DNA from: Escherichia virus KFS-EC
Reading direction: 5' to 3' (one strand)
Sequence record: MH560358
DNA length: 64,000 nt
The notes below the pieces were generated by a model, which saw only the letters and a list, made by a program, of their open reading frames with translations, was not told the DNA's origin and made no database searches. How positions within the stretch are numbered: the stretch's first letter is position 1; the number at the start of each line of letters is the position of its first letter. The translations under genes were made by a program, and so were the position numbers. Positions 52,516 through 62,040 of the stretch are shown piece by piece.

Positions 52516-53484
52516 TTACATCCCTAACAGAGCGTCAAGATCATCCAGATCAGAAGCGGAGGAAGTACCGCCACCCAGGTCCAGAGATGCCATCAGGTCA
52601 TCAGCGGAAGAACTCGACGCTGCGATAGCTGCGGTAGAAACAGACGCGGCGATAGCTGAGGTAGTGCCAGCATCGAATGCATTCATCTGTGCGTCAAAAT
52701 CGTCAAGCTGGCTGTTAATCGCTGCCGCAGCACTGGAAGCCGCCGCACCAGCTACCATAGAAACGCCCATAGTTTTCTTAAATTTGGTTTCCAGTTCATC
52801 GAACGGTTTAAACTGGCTAGGCGCTACAATCTCACCCAGATCAACCATGTTTTCCATCAGATATTTCTGATATGCTTCGTCTTCAATCTTCGGAAGCTGT
52901 GATTGCTGCATGAAACGAGAATCATCATAGTTCTGGTGTTTATCAACCTTCTTAGCTTTCAGGAGGAAGTTAGCACCGGAGAACACACAAGTTACATCTA
53001 CCGGAACTTCGCCCATATCGGTATTCACGTTCACCATTGCAACGATCTTATCATAAATTTTCTGACCGAAGCGGAATTTGAATACATTACCTTCATTTTC
53101 TGGTGCTTGAGGATCTTTCAGTACCAGAATATTTGCGTAGTAAGAGGCTTTACGCTTAATCAGTTGCCATTCGGTTTTATCGGTATTGTACAGGTCTTTT
53201 TCGTTAATATATTTGCACACAGGGCAAGAATCAAAATCACCGTGGGTGCTTGAGCAGTTTTCCCAATACCATTTACCATTAACTTTGAAGGAATGGTTTA
53301 CCAGTTTCACAATCGGCAGACCGTCTTCTGTCTTAGACGGCAGGAAGCGAATCAGGGCTTCACCGTTACCTGCTGCATCAGTCTTAATCTTCCACTCTTT
53401 CGGGTCTTCTTTGGAGAAACCGTTGCCACCTTTCAGTGCGGCCAGTTGAGCTTGCAGTTTGGAAGAATCTTGGCGTTTAAACAT
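52516..53484 (-). CDS. 32: Single-stranded DNA-binding protein gp32
   Basis: Start moved to MFKRQ (T4 gp32 starts MFKRK); strong similarity including the zinc-binding region and acidic C-terminus. Confidence 0.9.
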
Positions 53485-53544
53485 ATTCACTATTCCTTCT
53501 TTTGATTAATTTACTAGACTATTATACAGATTTAAATTTACTTG

Positions 53545-54225
53545 TCAACTATTTGTTTCGGCTTTTAATTGAGATATTTCTTTACACTCTTTAACTACTT
53601 TAACAAATAATGCTCTTGCTTTTGCGGCGTCAATAACAAGTAGTTTCTTGTACGCCTTCATTTTAACACTATAAGTTTGCCAAATCAAGTCTTTGGCTAC
53701 CTTGTCGTGTGCGTCGATTATATTTAGAAAGCTATCTAACAACATAAACGACTCAAACGATATAATCCGATTTTGCAGTAGTTTAAAGATACCGCTAGTT
53801 TCGGTTGCGGGATTGTATGTAATTAGCTCTTTAAGAGTAACCCCGCGTTTCTCTGAGAAGTATACCAGACTTTTAATGTCATCGTCAAATCGTGTTGCCG
53901 CATCAGTGATTTTACCGATGTACTCCATGTAAAACCCGTATGCGTCAACATCAGTGATTTCACCTACCCATGCATCGGTATTAGCTACCAGATTGCTTAG
54001 GAATAGGAAGTATAATTCTCTTAGATTGTACTTTTCCGCTAATTTTGCGAAATAATACTTATCTCTGCGTTTATTGAATGCGGCATTAGACAACCGCATC
54101 CTCCAATTGTATTTTACGCAATCATAACGCCCGTTCATATGAGCTTTCATCATGCAATATAACATATACACAGATTTAGCATTAATTCGCATATCTGGAT
54201 CTGGAGGAAGACGGTTTCTGATCAT
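53545..54225 (-). CDS. 59: Helicase loader gp59
   Basis: 226 aa; similarity to T4 gp59 (KSVYMLYCMMKAHMNGRYD, FLSNLVANTDAW). Confidence 0.9.
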   Translation of the reverse strand: MIRNRLPPDPDMRINAKSVYMLYCMMKAHMNGRYDCVKYNWRMRLSNAAFNKRRDKYYFAKLAEKYNLRELYFLFLSNLVANTDAWVGEITDVDAYGFYMEYIGKITDAATRFDDDIKSLVYFSEKRGVTLKELITYNPATETSGIFKLLQNRIISFESFMLLDSFLNIIDAHDKVAKDLIWQTYSVKMKAYKKLLVIDAAKARALFVKVVKECKEISQLKAETNS

Positions 54226-54761: not shown

Positions 54762-55358
54762 TTAACCCTCTTTCGTCATTAATTGAAAACCACGTTCAGC
54801 TTTTGAAATTTCGCTAGGACTTAAATCGTCACCAACATATTCTAGCATCATTTCTCGGATAATGTCAAGTGCTTTTTCATCACCTGATTTTAACTCGAAC
54901 TCAAGTTCATAGTGAGCCTCTCCCATTCTTTCGCCGACTTTGCAATAATAGAAAGTGTCTTTGCACATTTCCACTATAGCACCCTCAAGGTCAAGTGTCA
55001 ATGACTTGCGGTATGTCATTACTTGAAGTAAAGGAACGATAAGGTCGGAGTTTACGCCTAGACTATCAACATAGTGATAGAAATCATCCGTTGTTGAAAA
55101 AGTAATTTCTTCTCGGTTGAAGAGTCCAGATTCACTATCACCTATTTTGACCATGATCAATGATCTATTAACGTCAAGTCGAGCATAAATTCCTTTTCGA
55201 CGTAGTGCATGATCTTCGGTATCATAATAAAATTCGTGTTTTAGAGTGTTAGCACGATCTACTAGATTGTACCCGTCATACATTGCTACCCACAAATCAC
55301 AGATTGTTTCGACGCCAATTTGTGAGTGTGCATAGTATTTTAATTCAAGTTCTTTCAT
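54762..55358 (-). CDS. CYTH-domain (triphosphate tunnel metalloenzyme-like) protein
   Basis: N-terminal ELELK (ExExK), FYYDTEDHALRRKGIYARL and C-terminal YELEFELK match the CYTH signature. Confidence 0.55.
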   Translation of the reverse strand: MKELELKYYAHSQIGVETICDLWVAMYDGYNLVDRANTLKHEFYYDTEDHALRRKGIYARLDVNRSLIMVKIGDSESGLFNREEITFSTTDDFYHYVDSLGVNSDLIVPLLQVMTYRKSLTLDLEGAIVEMCKDTFYYCKVGERMGEAHYELEFELKSGDEKALDIIREMMLEYVGDDLSPSEISKAERGFQLMTKEG

Positions 55359-55368
55359 ATGTCAACCC

Positions 55369-56316
55369 TTAGAACTCACCAATTTTCTGCAACATTTTAA
55401 CCAACGCATTTGTTACAAAATAGTTATAAATTTTACCGCGTGGTGCTGGTTTAGATTTTTCCCATGCTAACAAAATTTCATATTCGATGTTATCGGGAAT
55501 AAATTCGAAATCAATAAGTTCGCGGTTTTCGTCAAAGCGTCGTGCTTCTTCCTCTGTCATCAAAGACTTTGGATCTTCGGCATCGAAAATTTGCTCTAAC
55601 CATTTGGTTGCAATTGGTTTAGCCCTTTCTCCTTCCAGTCGTGAGATAATGAAATCACTACGGCACTTGATAGAAGCTACACCGTCTTTTGCGTCACCCT
55701 TAACACATTTTACCATAAGGTCTTTGTAAGGGCTACCATATTTGCATTTCTTCCACGCTTTCTGTACTGGCGCCCACTGTTTCACGTTTTTGTATTTGTG
55801 CAACTGTGTGTAGTCACCATCGCCTGAGTTGATCAGCACCTGGCGACCTTCGACAGAAAACTTTTTAGTTAATACAGCGATTATATCATCTGCTTCAACT
55901 TTGTCAACCTTAATAACGTGATAAGGCATGTTCTCTTTAAACTCTTCGGTGATCTTATTGATCGCAGCAAAGATCATCTCCCAATCACGCGGATCTGCGT
56001 CTCGTTTTTCCTTACGGTTGCGTTTATAGTAAGGGGCGATATCACGTCGCCAGTAACCTTTGCTTGAATCAAAAGCAAGTACCGTAATAGGGTATTGCTC
56101 TTTGAATTTTGTCATATTATAACGCATGGTGTCAAGGATAAGATGACGGATCATGCCTTCATTAATAGGATCTTCCGGTTTAAAGGTATGTGAGATAGTA
56201 GCAATCATAAGCTGCGACATATCAATCAAATGCACACCTTCCGGCAGTTTATCTTCTGGATCATCAAAGAAATCATTAAGTGTAGCGGTAGTTTTTGTAA
56301 ACGGGTTATACGTCAT
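55369..56316 (-). CDS. rnh: RNase H / 5'-3' flap endonuclease
   Basis: 315 aa; similarity to T4 RNase H (RHLILDT, GDGDYTQLHKY, GKIYNYFV). Confidence 0.9.
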   Translation of the reverse strand: MTYNPFTKTTATLNDFFDDPEDKLPEGVHLIDMSQLMIATISHTFKPEDPINEGMIRHLILDTMRYNMTKFKEQYPITVLAFDSSKGYWRRDIAPYYKRNRKEKRDADPRDWEMIFAAINKITEEFKENMPYHVIKVDKVEADDIIAVLTKKFSVEGRQVLINSGDGDYTQLHKYKNVKQWAPVQKAWKKCKYGSPYKDLMVKCVKGDAKDGVASIKCRSDFIISRLEGERAKPIATKWLEQIFDAEDPKSLMTEEEARRFDENRELIDFEFIPDNIEYEILLAWEKSKPAPRGKIYNYFVTNALVKMLQKIGEF

Positions 56317-56318
56317 AA

Positions 56319-56504
56319 TTAAGTTCTCTCCACTCTCACAACAACATATTCGCCAAACGAGTTAGATACTTCACGATCATACCCGTATTTCTCCATAACT
56401 CGCAGAATTGCATTGTTTAATTCGGCACGGAAATAATTGTAATCCTTATCTGGGATTCTGTCAACTATCCATTTTGCACCGTCTGACAAATCAACTTTAA
56501 CCAT
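56319..56504 (-). CDS. Hypothetical protein (61 aa)
   Basis: ATG ORF immediately upstream of rnh. Confidence 0.45.
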   Translation of the reverse strand: MVKVDLSDGAKWIVDRIPDKDYNYFRAELNNAILRVMEKYGYDREVSNSFGEYVVVRVERT

Positions 56505-56510
56505 AATATA

Positions 56511-57092
56511 TCATCCTCTTTTTGGAAAATTTAAATAAGCATACTCGCCAACTATTTCATGTGCTGCACGGTCATAAGCCTTAGCCGCCTCAACTTCTGT
56601 CTCAAAGTATCCTAGATGTATATTCTTTCGATTGATAACAATATACGCCTTCCACGGCTTTTTCTTGCTTGGTGATAATGATACACCTTTATATTTGCTA
56701 TGGCAAGCCTTTTTCTTTGAGACGTTAAACTGATTTTGCTGTTCGGTTGCTTCTCTCATGTTTGACGGTCTATTGTTAGTTTTGTCTTGGTCTATGTGAT
56801 CTATTCGTTCAACCTGAGTACCATACTCTAAAAACCAGACAACTCTATGTACAAACAGATTAAGTTTATGACCATTGTTGTAAAATGTAAAGTATAAATA
56901 TCCTTCTTTATGGAGACATACCCTTACCACATCACCTTTTTTGTATATGGACCCTTCTTTTCGGAATCCAGCAGCTACAGAATCCTTTAAATGGTATAAT
57001 ATTCCATCGACATGATAGAATCTACCTTTTATCGCTTTCTGTGTCTCGATATCCCAAAATTTTGTTTTTGCCACAACAAACACCACACACAA
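56511..57092 (-). CDS. HNH-AP2 homing endonuclease
   Basis: HNH_3 segment (HRVVWF...IDHIDQDKTNNRPSNM) followed by AP2-like DNA-binding segment (YKGVS...KPWKAYIVINRKNIHLGYFETEVEAAKAYDRAA). Confidence 0.7.
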   Translation of the reverse strand: MCVVFVVAKTKFWDIETQKAIKGRFYHVDGILYHLKDSVAAGFRKEGSIYKKGDVVRVCLHKEGYLYFTFYNNGHKLNLFVHRVVWFLEYGTQVERIDHIDQDKTNNRPSNMREATEQQNQFNVSKKKACHSKYKGVSLSPSKKKPWKAYIVINRKNIHLGYFETEVEAAKAYDRAAHEIVGEYAYLNFPKRG

Positions 57093-57126
57093 TAAATAAT
57101 TTCATATTATAACAGGAGACCCAATA

Positions 57127-60100
57127 ATGGCAGATTTTTCTCAACATTTCAAGGCCACCTTTGGCTTTGACGCTGGTAATGAAAAGGTCGTCAATGTAGC
57201 ATACGCAGATAAAAACACATCAACGGATGCGGTCAACGTTGAATTTTTCAATTACCATAATGGTATTACTCAGTATGACACAACTCGCGGTTATGATCAA
57301 TACGGAACTACAATCTATCAAAACCGTCCGTATTATGCAAAAGAAGATATCACAAAGCCAGCAGGTGATTTTGACCCGACTAAATGGCAAGCACTGCGCA
57401 CGGACCCACGTTGGGATTATATTGCAGCAACTTCCGGTGATACTCCTTTAAAGTCTGGTGATTATATCGCAGCAGATGGTCAATTTGCAAACTTGACTTT
57501 CTCGATGCCAACTAAACCAGCAGAGGGAGACACTATAACAGTAAAAGATATCGGTGGCAAGTGTGGTGTTAACGAATTATCGTTCTTGAGTTCAGGACAT
57601 GAGTTTTACCATAACGGTAATGTGTATAACCGAAAATGGTATTGCACTACCCCGTATGCAATGAACTATTTCATCTTTGTTCGGAATCGTTGGCATGTTT
57701 ATCAGACGGGAACAGAGCCGCGCGGTGTGTACGCACAGCCAGCGATTGATGCTATTCAAATGCAGAATGGTGATCAGGTATTTCGTCGTAGTTCGTTGGG
57801 TAATATTACCTTAGTGCTTCCTAAGTTTGCCAACAATGGCGACATGATCCAGACTACAGACCTTGACGGATTAACCGCAACCAACCACGTTACGGTTAAA
57901 GTTCATGAGCACGCAGAAGAACAATCAATTGGCACGTCCGGTCTAAAAGAGATTATTGGTAAGCGTAGCGGTCATGGTGTATTCATCTTTGACAAGACGG
58001 AAAACTTATGGCGTTTGTGGGATGGTGATCAGTCTGTTCGTCTTAAACCGATCATCGATGACACTCGCTTGCAACCTAATAGCTATGTTGCTGTATTTGG
58101 TGGTCGTGATGTTACTCTGACGCTGCCAACCAATGTCGAGCCGGGTGATCGTATTCAAGTTTCTATGCAGTATATGCACGGAAACCAGAATTGCCGTATT
58201 ATCACCCCCACAGAGGATACAAAAATCCTTATGCCGAAAAACATGGTTCAGTTTCCGAAGCGTAGCGAGTACCCATTCAACGGGACCGACACATGGAAGG
58301 AAGTGTCTGAATTGTCGTTCAATGCGGCTAGTGATTATGTACCTTATCTGGAGTTCTCTTATTCAGAAGGTGATGATGGTAAGAAATACTGGTTGGTGGC
58401 ACACGCTCATCCGATCGTAGAACGAGTAGATCCGACTCGTAAAGCGCGTGTCGGTGTAATTGCACTGGCTACCCAGACTGAAACGAATAAAAACCATGAA
58501 GAGAATCCTAGCGACGAAGTTGCAGTAACACCAAAAATGCTGGCTAATAAAACAGCCAACGAAACTCGACGCGGTATTGCTCGCATTGCGACTCAAGCGG
58601 AAACGCATCAAGATACTGGTTCCAACTTCATGGATGATGTTATCGTTACGCCTAAAAAGTTAAATGACTGTGTTGCTACCGAAGCCCGTCGTGGTGTGAT
58701 GGAAATTGCAACCCAGCACGAAACCAATGAAGGTTTAGACGATACCCGCGCTATTACTCCTAAGAAATTAGAAGAACGTCGCGCTTCCGAAGATTTAGCT
58801 GGTATTGCTGAAATTGTTCAGGCTGGCGGTAGTGCTGCCGCTCGACGTGGCGAAGCTGGTACAGGGATCTATAACATCAACGACCATGCTAAAATTGTTA
58901 CTCCACAAAACATCAACGAAGTCAAGGCGACAGAAACTTCCCGTGGTGTTGGCTATCTGGCAACTGACGCGGAAGTGCAAGGGGCTACAGAATCAACCCC
59001 GCAAGATGCTTTACTAATCACGACTCGCACGCTAACGAAACGTACTGCTACCGAATCGCGCACTGGTATCGCTGAAATTGCAACCCAGGAAGAAACAAAC
59101 TTAGGTCAAAGTGATAACCATATCATCACGCCTAAAAAGCTGCATACTCGCCGCGCAACGGAAACTTTACATGGTTTAGCAGAAATTGCAACTCAGCCGG
59201 AATTTGATGCAGGTCTTGATGATGCTCGCATTTCTACCCCATTGAAGATTAAAACCTTCTTTGAGAATGCACAGCGTTTGAAAGTAGATCCGACTCAGGG
59301 GCTTAACCTTACTGGTGATTTGTGGCAAGGTATCATGATCAGCGGTCTGGATGCAACCGAAGACACAAAAGGTGTCGCTAAAGTTGCTACTACTCAGCTT
59401 ACGGATGCTGGTCAAGATGATACTACAATCATCACGCCTAAAAAGCTGCAAGGCAAAAAAGCCACCGAAGGTAAAGAAGGTATTATCCGCGTTGGTACTC
59501 AAGACGAAACCGTCGCTGGTACTATGGACAATGTAGCAATTTCGCCTAAAAACTTCAAATATGTTGTTCAGACAGAAGAAACATGGCAAGCAACGGAAGC
59601 CCGTCGCGGATTCCTGAAAGTAGCAACACAAGAAAACTGTTTTGTTGGTGATAATCTGCAAGGTTCTACTCAAGAGCTTGATGAATATCAGCATGATGGG
59701 ATTGCGGTAACTCCGAAAGGATTAAACTACGCACTTGCTAATTTCTTACCTAAAATGGCAACCGCTCAGAATAGTTTGAAATTGGGTAACGTAGAGGCCG
59801 CTAAATGGGCGCGTAGAGACATTGACCAGACCATTGAGAGCAATTACACGTTTAATAAAAACGTTAACTTGAAGGGCGATTTAGAGTGCTTAAAATCCGG
59901 TTCCTTTGAAACTCTGTTTGTGACTAAGAACTCGACTGACGATCCGAGTAATGGTCATCTGGTATTGGGTGAGCGTGGAGTTGACGGTCACACCGGAATT
60001 ACTCTGCATGGCACAACCTTGTCAGAAGGTATGGAAAACTCATGGTCTATTATCGTTGGTGGTACTGGAACGGCGCAAGCAGTTAATAGTGATGCTATCG

Positions 60101-60867
60101 CTTTCTGTAAGATTGACGATTCTGGATCTGTTGAGCATTATGCCTTTGCTATGGAACGTGACGGCGATGCGTTAGCATATAGAGACTTCATAGCAGGTCG
60201 TAACCTGTATGCGAAACAAGGCGGTTTATATATTGTAGACCACGCCAATCCGGCAATGACTCGCTCTACAGACGGTATGTTGAATATCGGTCACGGTGGA
60301 AGTGTTAACATCAAAGCCGGTTATCAGAATCTGACTACAGAGATCGCAGGACAGAAATACCAGATCGTTCACGCAGGAAACGCAGACGAAGTTCTCGACC
60401 GTCAGTTTGTCAAGAATGCTGGCGATACGATGACCGGAAAGCTGATTATGGATAATGCGCCTATTGTTTCTGTTAAGCATGAGGCTATCGCGGCAACCGC
60501 TCCGGCAATCGGTAACATCGGTTTCTGGAACATGCGAGTAACTACCCAAAACATCAAAGAAACCTATCCAGAGAAGAAAAACGGCACATTGATGCAATGG
60601 GGTACTGATGAAAACGGCCTTACCCAAATCTGGTCGCCTGATGGTACTCATAAGCATTATATCCGTTCCGGTACAGATGGTCAATGGACCGCATGGGGCG
60701 AAATTTACACCAAACAGAACAAGCCTACCGCTCAGGAAATCGGGGCAGTTGTTGCCGAAGGTGGATTGATGAACTCTATGACGGTTCGTGACTGGATCAA
60801 GGTTGGTAATGTTAAAATTATTGCCAATAATCTGACTCGTACCGTAGATTTTATCTGGGAAGACTAA
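57127..60867 (+). CDS. 34: Long tail fibre proximal subunit gp34
   Basis: 1246 aa; N-terminus similar to T4 gp34 (PTRGY, RALRTD); position after rnh. Confidence 0.85.
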   Translation: MADFSQHFKATFGFDAGNEKVVNVAYADKNTSTDAVNVEFFNYHNGITQYDTTRGYDQYGTTIYQNRPYYAKEDITKPAGDFDPTKWQALRTDPRWDYIAATSGDTPLKSGDYIAADGQFANLTFSMPTKPAEGDTITVKDIGGKCGVNELSFLSSGHEFYHNGNVYNRKWYCTTPYAMNYFIFVRNRWHVYQTGTEPRGVYAQPAIDAIQMQNGDQVFRRSSLGNITLVLPKFANNGDMIQTTDLDGLTATNHVTVKVHEHAEEQSIGTSGLKEIIGKRSGHGVFIFDKTENLWRLWDGDQSVRLKPIIDDTRLQPNSYVAVFGGRDVTLTLPTNVEPGDRIQVSMQYMHGNQNCRIITPTEDTKILMPKNMVQFPKRSEYPFNGTDTWKEVSELSFNAASDYVPYLEFSYSEGDDGKKYWLVAHAHPIVERVDPTRKARVGVIALATQTETNKNHEENPSDEVAVTPKMLANKTANETRRGIARIATQAETHQDTGSNFMDDVIVTPKKLNDCVATEARRGVMEIATQHETNEGLDDTRAITPKKLEERRASEDLAGIAEIVQAGGSAAARRGEAGTGIYNINDHAKIVTPQNINEVKATETSRGVGYLATDAEVQGATESTPQDALLITTRTLTKRTATESRTGIAEIATQEETNLGQSDNHIITPKKLHTRRATETLHGLAEIATQPEFDAGLDDARISTPLKIKTFFENAQRLKVDPTQGLNLTGDLWQGIMISGLDATEDTKGVAKVATTQLTDAGQDDTTIITPKKLQGKKATEGKEGIIRVGTQDETVAGTMDNVAISPKNFKYVVQTEETWQATEARRGFLKVATQENCFVGDNLQGSTQELDEYQHDGIAVTPKGLNYALANFLPKMATAQNSLKLGNVEAAKWARRDIDQTIESNYTFNKNVNLKGDLECLKSGSFETLFVTKNSTDDPSNGHLVLGERGVDGHTGITLHGTTLSEGMENSWSIIVGGTGTAQAVNSDAIAFCKIDDSGSVEHYAFAMERDGDALAYRDFIAGRNLYAKQGGLYIVDHANPAMTRSTDGMLNIGHGGSVNIKAGYQNLTTEIAGQKYQIVHAGNADEVLDRQFVKNAGDTMTGKLIMDNAPIVSVKHEAIAATAPAIGNIGFWNMRVTTQNIKETYPEKKNGTLMQWGTDENGLTQIWSPDGTHKHYIRSGTDGQWTAWGEIYTKQNKPTAQEIGAVVAEGGLMNSMTVRDWIKVGNVKIIANNLTRTVDFIWED

Positions 60868-60900: not shown

Positions 60901-62040
60901 ATGACACAAGAGATAGAATTACGCAATACTGGAATTAAGTTTGCGCATTTCGACGAAGACTCCGCGACATTTACAAGCATTTCAGAAAACAACTCTGTGA
61001 TGTATAAGCTGGAAGTGCGCGGATCTAATGCGGATTCTTCCAAACCAGCAAGGATTAGATTTAATGGAGTGGAGATCGTCGGGACTGGCTATGAAACTGG
61101 CCTAAATTTTAAAGTTCTTACTCCAACTGGAAAACTACACGAAGAAAAGGTATTCTATGGTCGCGGTGCTGTTTTGGCAATGCGTGATTATCTTTCTTTG
61201 TTGAAAGGTGACTATATCATTGCGATGGCAACGCATGGAGAATTGTTTGCAGATCCGATAAGTGATGTTGTATTTTCTAAGATGGGATCTGTATCATTCC
61301 CGAATCACATTTTGTTACAGCAAATTCCTCGTGTATCCTATGCAGCAATTTATTCTACTAAAATGGGTAAAATTGTGTGCGAAGGGATGCAAGCAACGCA
61401 CGGAGAAGGTCAAGATTCGTCTATACAAATTGAGAAGGTTTATGATACTATAGATGATCTTGCGGTCACAGGAACACCACAACGATTTTTAGATTATCCG
61501 GTTGAGTATGTTAGCGAAGATGCCGAACATTTCGAGCTAATACAATGGCCTCATGATGAGATCAGCGCACCACTTGAATATTTTAACATAAAGGCAGGTG
61601 ACAAACTATCAATATCCTTTGAATTGTTCCGTGATAGTGCCGCAGCCGCAGCCAACGTAACAGCGCGTTTCTATCACAACTACTTCACTGATGGACAATA
61701 TCAAACTGGCGTTCGTTATAATGCCAGCCAGAAAGATCAATGGGAAAAGTTTGAAGCCGTCTATACCGTACCGGAAGGAGTTGATAGTGTTGCCACTGGT
61801 TGTATCAGATATCCAACCAACTCAAATGAAGGTATTGTTAAAATTAGAAACATACTAATAACGCCGATCAGTGGAGTCGTCAAAACTACTGGTCCTACTT
61901 CATTTGGTGTTAATGGTGTTAGAACAACTCATATTCAGGATAACGGTGATTTTACTAACCCTGTAATGAGTCTTCTTAAACTGCCTAGAGATAATAAACA
62001 CATCACATCCAACAACTTTAAAGAGTTCGATGTTGATTAA
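60901..62040 (+). CDS. 35: Long tail fibre hinge connector gp35
   Basis: 379 aa between 34 and 36 (T4 gp35 is 372 aa); assigned by synteny. Confidence 0.7.
   Translation: MTQEIELRNTGIKFAHFDEDSATFTSISENNSVMYKLEVRGSNADSSKPARIRFNGVEIVGTGYETGLNFKVLTPTGKLHEEKVFYGRGAVLAMRDYLSLLKGDYIIAMATHGELFADPISDVVFSKMGSVSFPNHILLQQIPRVSYAAIYSTKMGKIVCEGMQATHGEGQDSSIQIEKVYDTIDDLAVTGTPQRFLDYPVEYVSEDAEHFELIQWPHDEISAPLEYFNIKAGDKLSISFELFRDSAAAAANVTARFYHNYFTDGQYQTGVRYNASQKDQWEKFEAVYTVPEGVDSVATGCIRYPTNSNEGIVKIRNILITPISGVVKTTGPTSFGVNGVRTTHIQDNGDFTNPVMSLLKLPRDNKHITSNNFKEFDVD

Follow-up and report, generated by a model that had tools for sequence, protein, structure and literature searches.

The window analyzed here is a 64,000-nucleotide (nt) stretch of Escherichia virus KFS-EC (sequence record MH560358), a Krischvirus, i.e., an RB49/JSE-like T4-type coliphage. 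Its minus strand carries, in this order, gp32, gp59, gp33, dsbA, a CYTH-domain open reading frame (ORF), rnh, a 61-amino-acid (aa) ORF, and the ORF of a predicted endonuclease, and genes 34 and 35 follow on the plus strand (Table 1). The endonuclease gene has the same orientation as rnh, is divergent from gene 34, and lies 52 nt from the gene 34 ATG. The original prediction placed it between rnh and gene 34, which is accurate for gene 34, as the endonuclease gene is immediately upstream of it and on the opposite strand, but not for rnh, which is separated from the endonuclease gene by the conserved 61-aa ORF and is not its direct neighbor. The stop codon of the endonuclease gene is only 6 nt from the 61-aa ORF, and its GC content is 36%, compared with 40 to 45% in neighboring genes. 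The gene is free-standing, because its site is intergenic (a 43-nt spacer in phages that lack it) and an Rfam scan of positions 55300 to 58000 returned no intron and no other RNA family.

Two further features of the left flank were recorded. The CYTH-domain ORF between dsbA and rnh (198 aa; phrog_14893; positions 54762 to 55358, minus strand) is kept across Krischvirus and is labeled “adenylate cyclase” in some records. Nowhere else does the left flank vary as much, pairwise differences here reaching 13%. T4 is not known to have a gene at this position. A near-consensus σ70 promoter (TTGACA, 17 nt, TACAAT; 11 of 12 matches) is located at positions 56436 to 56464 on the minus strand, within the 61-aa ORF and directed toward rnh.

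The interval given for the endonuclease in the original prediction, 56511 to 57092, is exactly that of a 193-aa minus-strand ORF with a TTG start in the ORF listing of the window, but the coding sequence is likely to be shorter. The GTG at 57074, rather than the TTG at 57092, is probably the true start, because it is used in four to five GenBank records and in the gene calls of >30 assemblies, all with near-identical copies, and because a GAGG Shine-Dalgarno sequence precedes it in 13 other copies, at a distance of 8 nt (7 nt in the three copies of haplotype B, described below). The window is alone among 14 copies in having GTGG at this position, through a single A-to-T change at 57085 that may lower translation of the endonuclease.

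Table 1. Features of the endonuclease locus and its surroundings (positions in the 64,000-nt window)
Feature	Position	Strand	Basis or remarks
gp32	52516-53490	-	First in the local minus-strand order
rnh (T4 RNase H/5'-3' exonuclease)	55369-56316	-	Pfam RNaseH_C (2.6e-37) and 5_3_exonuc_N (6.1e-18)
Conserved 61-aa ORF, function unassigned	56319-56504	-	phrog_3594; between rnh and endonuclease gene
Maximal endonuclease ORF	56511-57092	-	TTG start; interval of the original prediction
Endonuclease coding sequence, 187 aa (probable)	56511-57074	-	GTG start; same 564-nt coding sequence annotated in ELT4, PTE-Eco09, FL15, pEJ01, and G37-3
Inserted cassette	56523-57113		591 nt in place of 43 nt of empty allele (GTTTCTATCAAGCCTYATTTTATAAATATGAWCATACTATAAA); anchored comparison
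C-terminal AP2 DNA-binding domain, aa 126-176	56547-56699	-	Pfam; phmmer; Foldseek
HNH_3 catalytic motif, aa 74-115 of the 187-aa protein	56730-56855	-	Pfam; family alignment; I-HmuI superposition
Perfect late-promoter motif TATAAATA	56893-56900	+	Within endonuclease gene, antisense, toward gene 34
Endonuclease Shine-Dalgarno sequence	57083-57086	-	GTGG in window versus GAGG in 13 other copies
Gene 34 late-promoter motif AATAAATA	57091-57098	+	28 nt before ATG; empty allele has TATAAATA at the same spacing
Extended -10 promoter-like element TGTTATAAT	57106-57114	-	10 of 12 matches, TG present; empty allele has TTTTATAGT
Gene 34, long tail fiber proximal subunit	57127-60867	+	phrog_972, full-length match
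Two-allele patch, gene 34 codons 26-33	57203-57225	+	Type I (window) TACGCAGATAAAAACACATCAACG; type II TTGGCTGATAAGAATGTCAACACC
Gene 35	60901-62040	+	Downstream of gene 34

The assignment of the product as a free-standing endonuclease with HNH_3 and AP2 domains, also made in the original prediction, is well supported. Both Pfam matches exceed their gathering cutoffs (HNH_3, E = 1.6e-12 and 47.3 bits versus 24.8; AP2, E = 3.6e-8 and 34.0 bits versus 33.3), and the protein matches phrog_99, “HNH endonuclease,” in PHROGs (E = 2.5e-46). Residues D92-H93, N101, N105, N114, and N117 are invariant in a 21-member family alignment and are all intact in the window protein. An AlphaFold model based on this alignment (pLDDT of 91.8) has I-HmuI (1u3e) as its best PDB match for residues ~40 to 140, with 102 aligned columns, an rmsd of 2.8, and 22% identity, and phmmer also detects I-HmuI (E = 3.9e-4). 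The C-terminal 60 residues of the model superpose on plant AP2/ERF domains with an rmsd of 1.4 to 1.8 (Foldseek against 1gcc, rmsd of 1.7 and TM of 0.81), and phmmer matches this part to the plant AP2/ERF structures WRI1, ERF096, and ATERF1 (E = 3.4e-8). The protein thus combines an N-terminal beta domain like that of I-HmuI with an HNH_3 active site that is intact and an AP2 domain at the C terminus. In its beta domain and HNH core it is closest in structure to I-HmuI, an HNH nicking homing endonuclease of Bacillus phage SPO1, but that enzyme is intron encoded and has a helix-turn-helix C terminus, whereas the window protein is free-standing and ends in AP2. The protein has no GIY-YIG Pfam match, which rules out a Seg identity. 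A role as a defense system was also rejected, as PADLOC returned only “homing endonuclease” models and NCBIfam returned nothing.

A 2.8-kb query over the region retrieved 57 phage records at 91 to 99% identity, all Krischvirus or unclassified relatives; these include duplicates (RB49 three times and JSE, Phi1, GEC-3S, and ECD7 twice each) and are phylogenetically nonindependent. The gene is present in seven of the 57 (~12%; ELT4, PTE-Eco09, FL15, FL20, PHB13, pEJ01, and G37-3), at an identical site in all seven, and the remaining 50 have the empty 43-nt allele. The original prediction had proposed a comparison of the rnh-34 junction in related phages, with an endonuclease at the same place in every relative as the outcome that would count against it. 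The junction is instead polymorphic, and the gene thus behaves like a mobile homing endonuclease gene. The exact 187-aa protein is encoded in at least 30 further assemblies, each time between gene 34 and the 61-aa ORF. Among 5.8 billion proteins, the closest cluster other than its own has only 53% identity, no second site holds this endonuclease lineage, and a scan of IMG/VR for relatives of the protein returned no copy.

The gene is an ordinary mobile member of the published HNH-AP2 class, and near-identical copies are already annotated as “homing endonuclease” in GenBank. This class of homing endonuclease genes was reportedly defined by Magnani et al. in 2004 and is said to have received the name “IPA-HNH” from Barth et al. 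in 2023. Members are listed for RB49 (ORF040c), JSE, RB16, and RB43 (PMC1524935; PMC2839356; PMC2993671, Table 5) and occur in ICP1-like phages (PMC10448857). The HNH-AP2 genes of T4-related phages (RB49 ORF040c and those of JSE, RB16, RB43, and KP15) have the same N-terminal HNH_3 and C-terminal AP2 domains and, like the window gene, lie free-standing between genes and have a patchy distribution in close relatives. The RB49, JSE, and RB16 paralogues share 46 to 53% protein identity with the window endonuclease, which represents a distinct lineage, and they differ from it in insertion site: ORF040 in RB49, vs.8/endolysin in JSE, and beside gene 46 in RB16, rather than upstream of gene 34. A literature search found no biochemical characterization of this widespread class in T4-related phages.

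The boundaries of the junction were defined by anchored comparison of eight occupied and 12 empty alleles, the empty allele being the 43-nt spacer between the 61-aa ORF and gene 34. At the left edge, occupied and empty alleles match through ...TCATCCTCTTTT, and because this sequence is shared, the final codons and stop of the endonuclease gene overlap the Shine-Dalgarno sequence of the 61-aa ORF. The right ~50 nt of the cassette (57064 to 57113) correspond to the resident intergenic DNA at ~65% identity, and full identity resumes abruptly at AGGAGACCC. Outside the insert, the sole fixed difference between carriers and noncarriers is at 57113. The empty allele was also considered as a deletion remnant, but this was rejected, as it contains no endonuclease-derived sequence except AAAAGAGGATGA, the final three codons and stop that both alleles share and that also serve as the Shine-Dalgarno sequence of the 61-aa ORF. 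No terminator-like hairpin was found at either cassette border. Mobility mediated by PeSL elements, the promoter/stem-loop cassettes of RB49 and phi1 (Arbiol et al. 2010, PMC2839356), was likewise rejected. These belong to the same phage group and contain small accessory ORFs that are gained and lost along with their own σ70-type promoter, but PeSL cassettes have flanking stem-loops, whereas the window cassette has neither a GGGG...CCCC stem-loop nor a PeSL repeat pair and encodes a nuclease able to explain its own mobility.

The diverged ~50-nt right segment holds the GTG start and the Shine-Dalgarno sequence of the endonuclease gene, the extended -10 promoter-like element, and, on the other strand, the late-promoter motif of gene 34. 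The extended -10 element is paired with a -35-like CTGCCA at 57133 to 57128 on the minus strand, and we infer that it is the endonuclease promoter, with a predicted transcript start near 57099. RB49-type late promoters usually have A or T at position -13, the first position of the motif (PMC1524935), and because either is tolerated there, gene 34 probably retains a late promoter despite the cassette. The perfect motif within the endonuclease gene, at a distance of 227 nt from gene 34, is one of just nine on the plus strand of the 64 kb and has no variable column across copies. Late transcription of gene 34 could start here as well (~56906), in addition to a possible start at ~57104, and the resulting RNA would be antisense to the 5' third of the endonuclease gene. 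In T4, promoters of neighboring genes are often embedded in endonuclease genes (PMC2988022).

Another reading is that the gene has a domesticated or competitive function rather than plain selfish homing, either as an AP2-mediated regulator where the divergent promoters of gene 34 and of the rnh operon overlap or as a nuclease that damages coinfecting relatives. The gene overlies the gene 34 late promoter and contains the perfect TATAAATA, and AP2 domains are sequence-specific repressors in phage CasPR proteins (bioRxiv 10.64898/2026.02.23.707548). For the competitive role, one report describes an intron endonuclease that aids competition between coinfecting phages (PMC11620839). However, the intact HNH site argues against a pure DNA binder, and 88% of relatives live without the gene. 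A domesticated function is considered very improbable.

Copies of the gene fall into two haplotypes. The ten haplotype A copies have a mean pairwise difference of 0.0007 (0.07%) within the gene, while the 600 nt on each side differ by 0.022 to 0.023 in the same carriers, so that internal diversity is ~30-fold below that of the flanks, across many backgrounds. These near-identical copies amid ~2% diverged surrounding DNA indicate recent horizontal spread of the endonuclease gene. Haplotype B, represented by FL20, PHB13, and one intact metagenomic copy, differs from haplotype A by ~2%. FL20 and PHB13 each have a +1 frameshift of their own, and 12 of 14 copies are intact. Between the two haplotypes, pN/pS is 0.38 (six nonsynonymous and four synonymous differences), compared with 0.03 for rnh.

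Linkage to the gene was followed outward in a fully aligned set of 12 empty and 13 to 14 occupied alleles. On the left, 13 carriers have nine distinct haplotypes within 100 nt, several of which are identical to noncarrier haplotypes, with breakpoints ≤39 nt from the junction; r2 with gene presence is ≤0.15, and linkage is lost within ~40 nt. On the right, all 13 to 14 carriers are identical from the cassette through 57225, except for a private synonymous C/A at 57159, and diversity resumes ~40 nt past the two-allele patch in gene 34. Within gene 34, r2 is ~0.5 (0.51 at the patch) over the initial 100 nt only, falls to ≤0.08 at 100 to 200 nt into the gene, a level reached 40 nt past the patch, and is at background level afterwards. 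Krischvirus genomes are finely mosaic throughout the regions compared. The sequence comparisons indicate that the element has recently entered many genomic backgrounds via very short exchanged tracts. The diversity pattern alone fits active homing and a young insertion moved by intense general recombination alike, and a young neutral insertion on a type I background (see below), spread by ordinary recombination, would show low internal diversity too.

The further suggestion in the original prediction, that an endonuclease at the border of host range determinants can drive exchange of tail fiber alleles during coinfection, is not supported. Long coconversion or hitchhiking into gene 34 or rnh was rejected: r2 drops to background once 100 nt of gene 34 have been passed, no site past 57113 is fixed between carriers and noncarriers, and from a few hundred nucleotides outward the diversity of carriers equals that of the population. 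Linkage in gene 34 ends ~140 nt into the gene, and at most codons 26 to 33 of gp34 would travel with the element. In addition, gp34 is the proximal half-fiber, and the receptor-binding genes 37 and 38 lie beyond gene 35, >6 kb from the endonuclease gene. For phage therapy genomics, this implies that the element apparently does not move receptor-binding tail fiber modules.

The patch at codons 26 to 33 of gene 34 is the sole strictly two-haplotype, sharply bordered dense cluster of variation in 8 kb of alignment, with no variable column within 25 nt on either side. The two alleles differ at 12 of 23 nt, giving Y26L, T31V, and S32N (type I peptide, AYADKNTSTD; type II peptide, ALADKNVNTD), and four of the differing codons are synonymous. 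Type II is found in 36 of the 57 records, all without the gene (72% of the 50 noncarriers), and type I in 20, comprising all seven carriers and 13 noncarriers; the additional metagenomic carriers are all type I. Of the reference phages, RB49 is empty with a type II patch and JSE is empty with a type I patch. The one remaining record, Makalu_002, lacks the gene and has a chimeric patch, in which the cassette-proximal third is type II and the remainder type I (TTGGCT followed by AAAAACACATCAACG). The combination of gene and type II patch was thus found in none of 13 to 14 carriers spanning at least nine left-flank backgrounds, whereas type I without the gene is common. A pattern scan of JGI metagenomes for cassette plus type II returned nothing, but it was uninformative, as the positive control (cassette plus type I) also returned nothing.

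Several genomes provide nearly isogenic comparisons. Neither kaaroe nor AV108 has the gene, and over ~1.5 kb all that separates the type II kaaroe from the type I AV108 is the patch plus one single nucleotide polymorphism. AV108 in turn matches the type I carrier PTE-Eco09 over ~1.5 kb except for the cassette. The alleles also differ in predicted local RNA folding (57199 to 57236): as a plus-strand 43-mer, type II has a folding energy of -12.6 kcal/mol and type I one of -6.6 kcal/mol. The type I patch also creates a weak terminator-like hairpin and T-run on the minus strand at 57231 to 57216, which was given little weight, as shuffled sequences yield 0.8 such sites by chance in the region.

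The best explanation, with a probability of roughly 0.5, combines a mobile HNH-AP2 homing endonuclease gene with the gene 34 patch as the likeliest determinant of homing. Its components differ in strength. The gene is very probably a homing endonuclease gene that has been mobile recently. That the patch is the cleavage or immunity target is suggested more tentatively, at a little under even odds, by its distribution among carriers and noncarriers, and slightly greater caution applies to the proposal that the enzyme recognizes this 23-bp stretch in the 5' end of gene 34, ~130 bp away, rather than its own insertion site.

In the proposed mechanism, the enzyme would nick or cut genomes without the gene during mixed infection, and T4-type recombinational repair would then copy the cassette from the carrier genome, as in the intronless homing of SegF, SegG, and MobE. 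The likeliest recognition or immunity determinant would be the 23-nt patch, ~130 nt from the cassette, with type II being sensitive and type I immune and obligatorily coconverted; the diverged 50 nt at the junction could be an alternative or additional determinant. Short repairs would yield immunized genomes that have gained the type I patch without acquiring the gene. Endonuclease expression would probably be early and low, given the extended -10 σ70-like promoter, GTG start, and short Shine-Dalgarno sequence (mutated in the window), while gene 34 would keep a usable late promoter at its original spacing. Homing from a distant site predicts coconversion of the interval between cut and gene, which matches both the exclusive occurrence of type I in carriers and the frequency of type I without the gene. 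If this model is correct, each homing event overwrites gp34 codons 26 to 33 (Y26L, T31V, and S32N), about a quarter of the noncarrier phages are “immunized” survivors with the resistant patch but without the gene, and these genomes are a natural record of both outcomes of distant-site homing by a member of the HNH-AP2 class.

The main competing explanation is an active homing endonuclease whose target is the empty intergenic site itself, i.e., the disrupted 43 nt, with the gene 34 patch as an older micromosaic polymorphism that has hitchhiked. The type I patch is not diagnostic of the gene, as 13 noncarrier records have it, whereas the junction segment separates carriers from noncarriers perfectly and is alone in doing so. 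In two other polymorphic HNH genes of these phages (see below), the cluster of diagnostic substitutions directly abuts the insertion, which favors a target made up wholly or partly of the junction segment. However, the left tract ends ≤40 nt from the cassette, and if a break at the insertion site produced equally short tracts on the right, the type II patch of 72% of noncarriers should often have been left in place and type II carriers should be common. None was seen on the nine or more left-flank backgrounds, while the reciprocal class is common. The recombination count on the right side alone is weak (P of ~0.1), and the argument leans on the comparison with the left side. Cleavage at the insertion site, with an incidental patch, is regarded as possible but rather unlikely.

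A third explanation is that the gene is a passive or decaying remnant that no longer homes, a neutral insertion polymorphism shuffled by the frequent general recombination of Krischvirus. The independent +1 frameshifts in FL20 and PHB13, the mutated Shine-Dalgarno sequence in the window, the relaxed pN/pS of 0.38, and the low frequency of the gene (7 of 57 records; ~12%) are all compatible with a decaying element, and the fine mosaicism seen everywhere in these phages would supply the shuffling. Nevertheless, the great majority of copies are intact and all catalytic residues are present, and the deficit of internal diversity relative to the flanks extends over many backgrounds. Nor would a neutral marker whose left-hand linkage vanishes within 40 nt be expected to show a complete, one-sided association with type I. 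A remnant that has ceased to home is judged improbable.

Homing from a target in a flanking gene has precedents in T4. SegG sits between genes 32 and 59 and cuts in 32, and SegF and MobE likewise act at a distance, in a gene next to their own. MobE and MobA, which are HNH enzymes, nick rather than cut (PMC2988022). Like the window gene, segG, segF, and mobE are free-standing endonuclease genes between conserved genes. Their targets lie in a flanking essential gene 100 to 300 nt away; for the window gene, a target of this kind is suggested by population patterns only. A resistant variant in the carrier genome and coconversion of the interval between cut and gene are features of the T4 systems and are proposed likewise here. 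The proteins are of different types, however, as SegF and SegG are GIY-YIG enzymes and the T4 Mob proteins have other C-terminal domains, while the window protein is HNH_3-AP2. A literature search returned no paper that describes the insertion site of the window gene or the two-allele patch. The value of the locus lies in its population pattern: public genomes hold carriers, empty type II alleles, empty type I alleles, one chimeric patch, and two frameshifted copies. With several of these allele classes in nearly isogenic local backgrounds, the locus offers a test case for target choice and coconversion tract length in HNH-AP2 enzymes.

Two other polymorphic HNH genes of the same phages, with dense diagnostic substitutions in adjoining genes, provide a supporting analogy for homing. 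A 198-aa HNH gene lies between gp32 and gp59 in FL20, pEJ01, and G2494 (L005, L008, and L018; ~1597 to 2193), a site (53476 to 53572) that is empty in the window and in most relatives. Its carriers have dense, fully diagnostic substitutions where gp32 begins and gp59 ends, within the first and last few codons, respectively, and the niche is the same one held in T4 by the unrelated GIY-YIG gene segG. A paralogous HNH-AP2 gene (~51% identical) is located between vs.8 and endolysin in 14 of the 57 Krischvirus records (JSE EpJSE_00105; L032, 1561 to 2136), with 11 to 12 fixed differences in ~38 nt of the endolysin 3' end, adjoining the insertion. This gene is present in OZ035808.1, a record named RB49, and absent from the original RB49 records (AY343333.1/NC_005066.1); either the stocks differ or one of the records is mislabeled.
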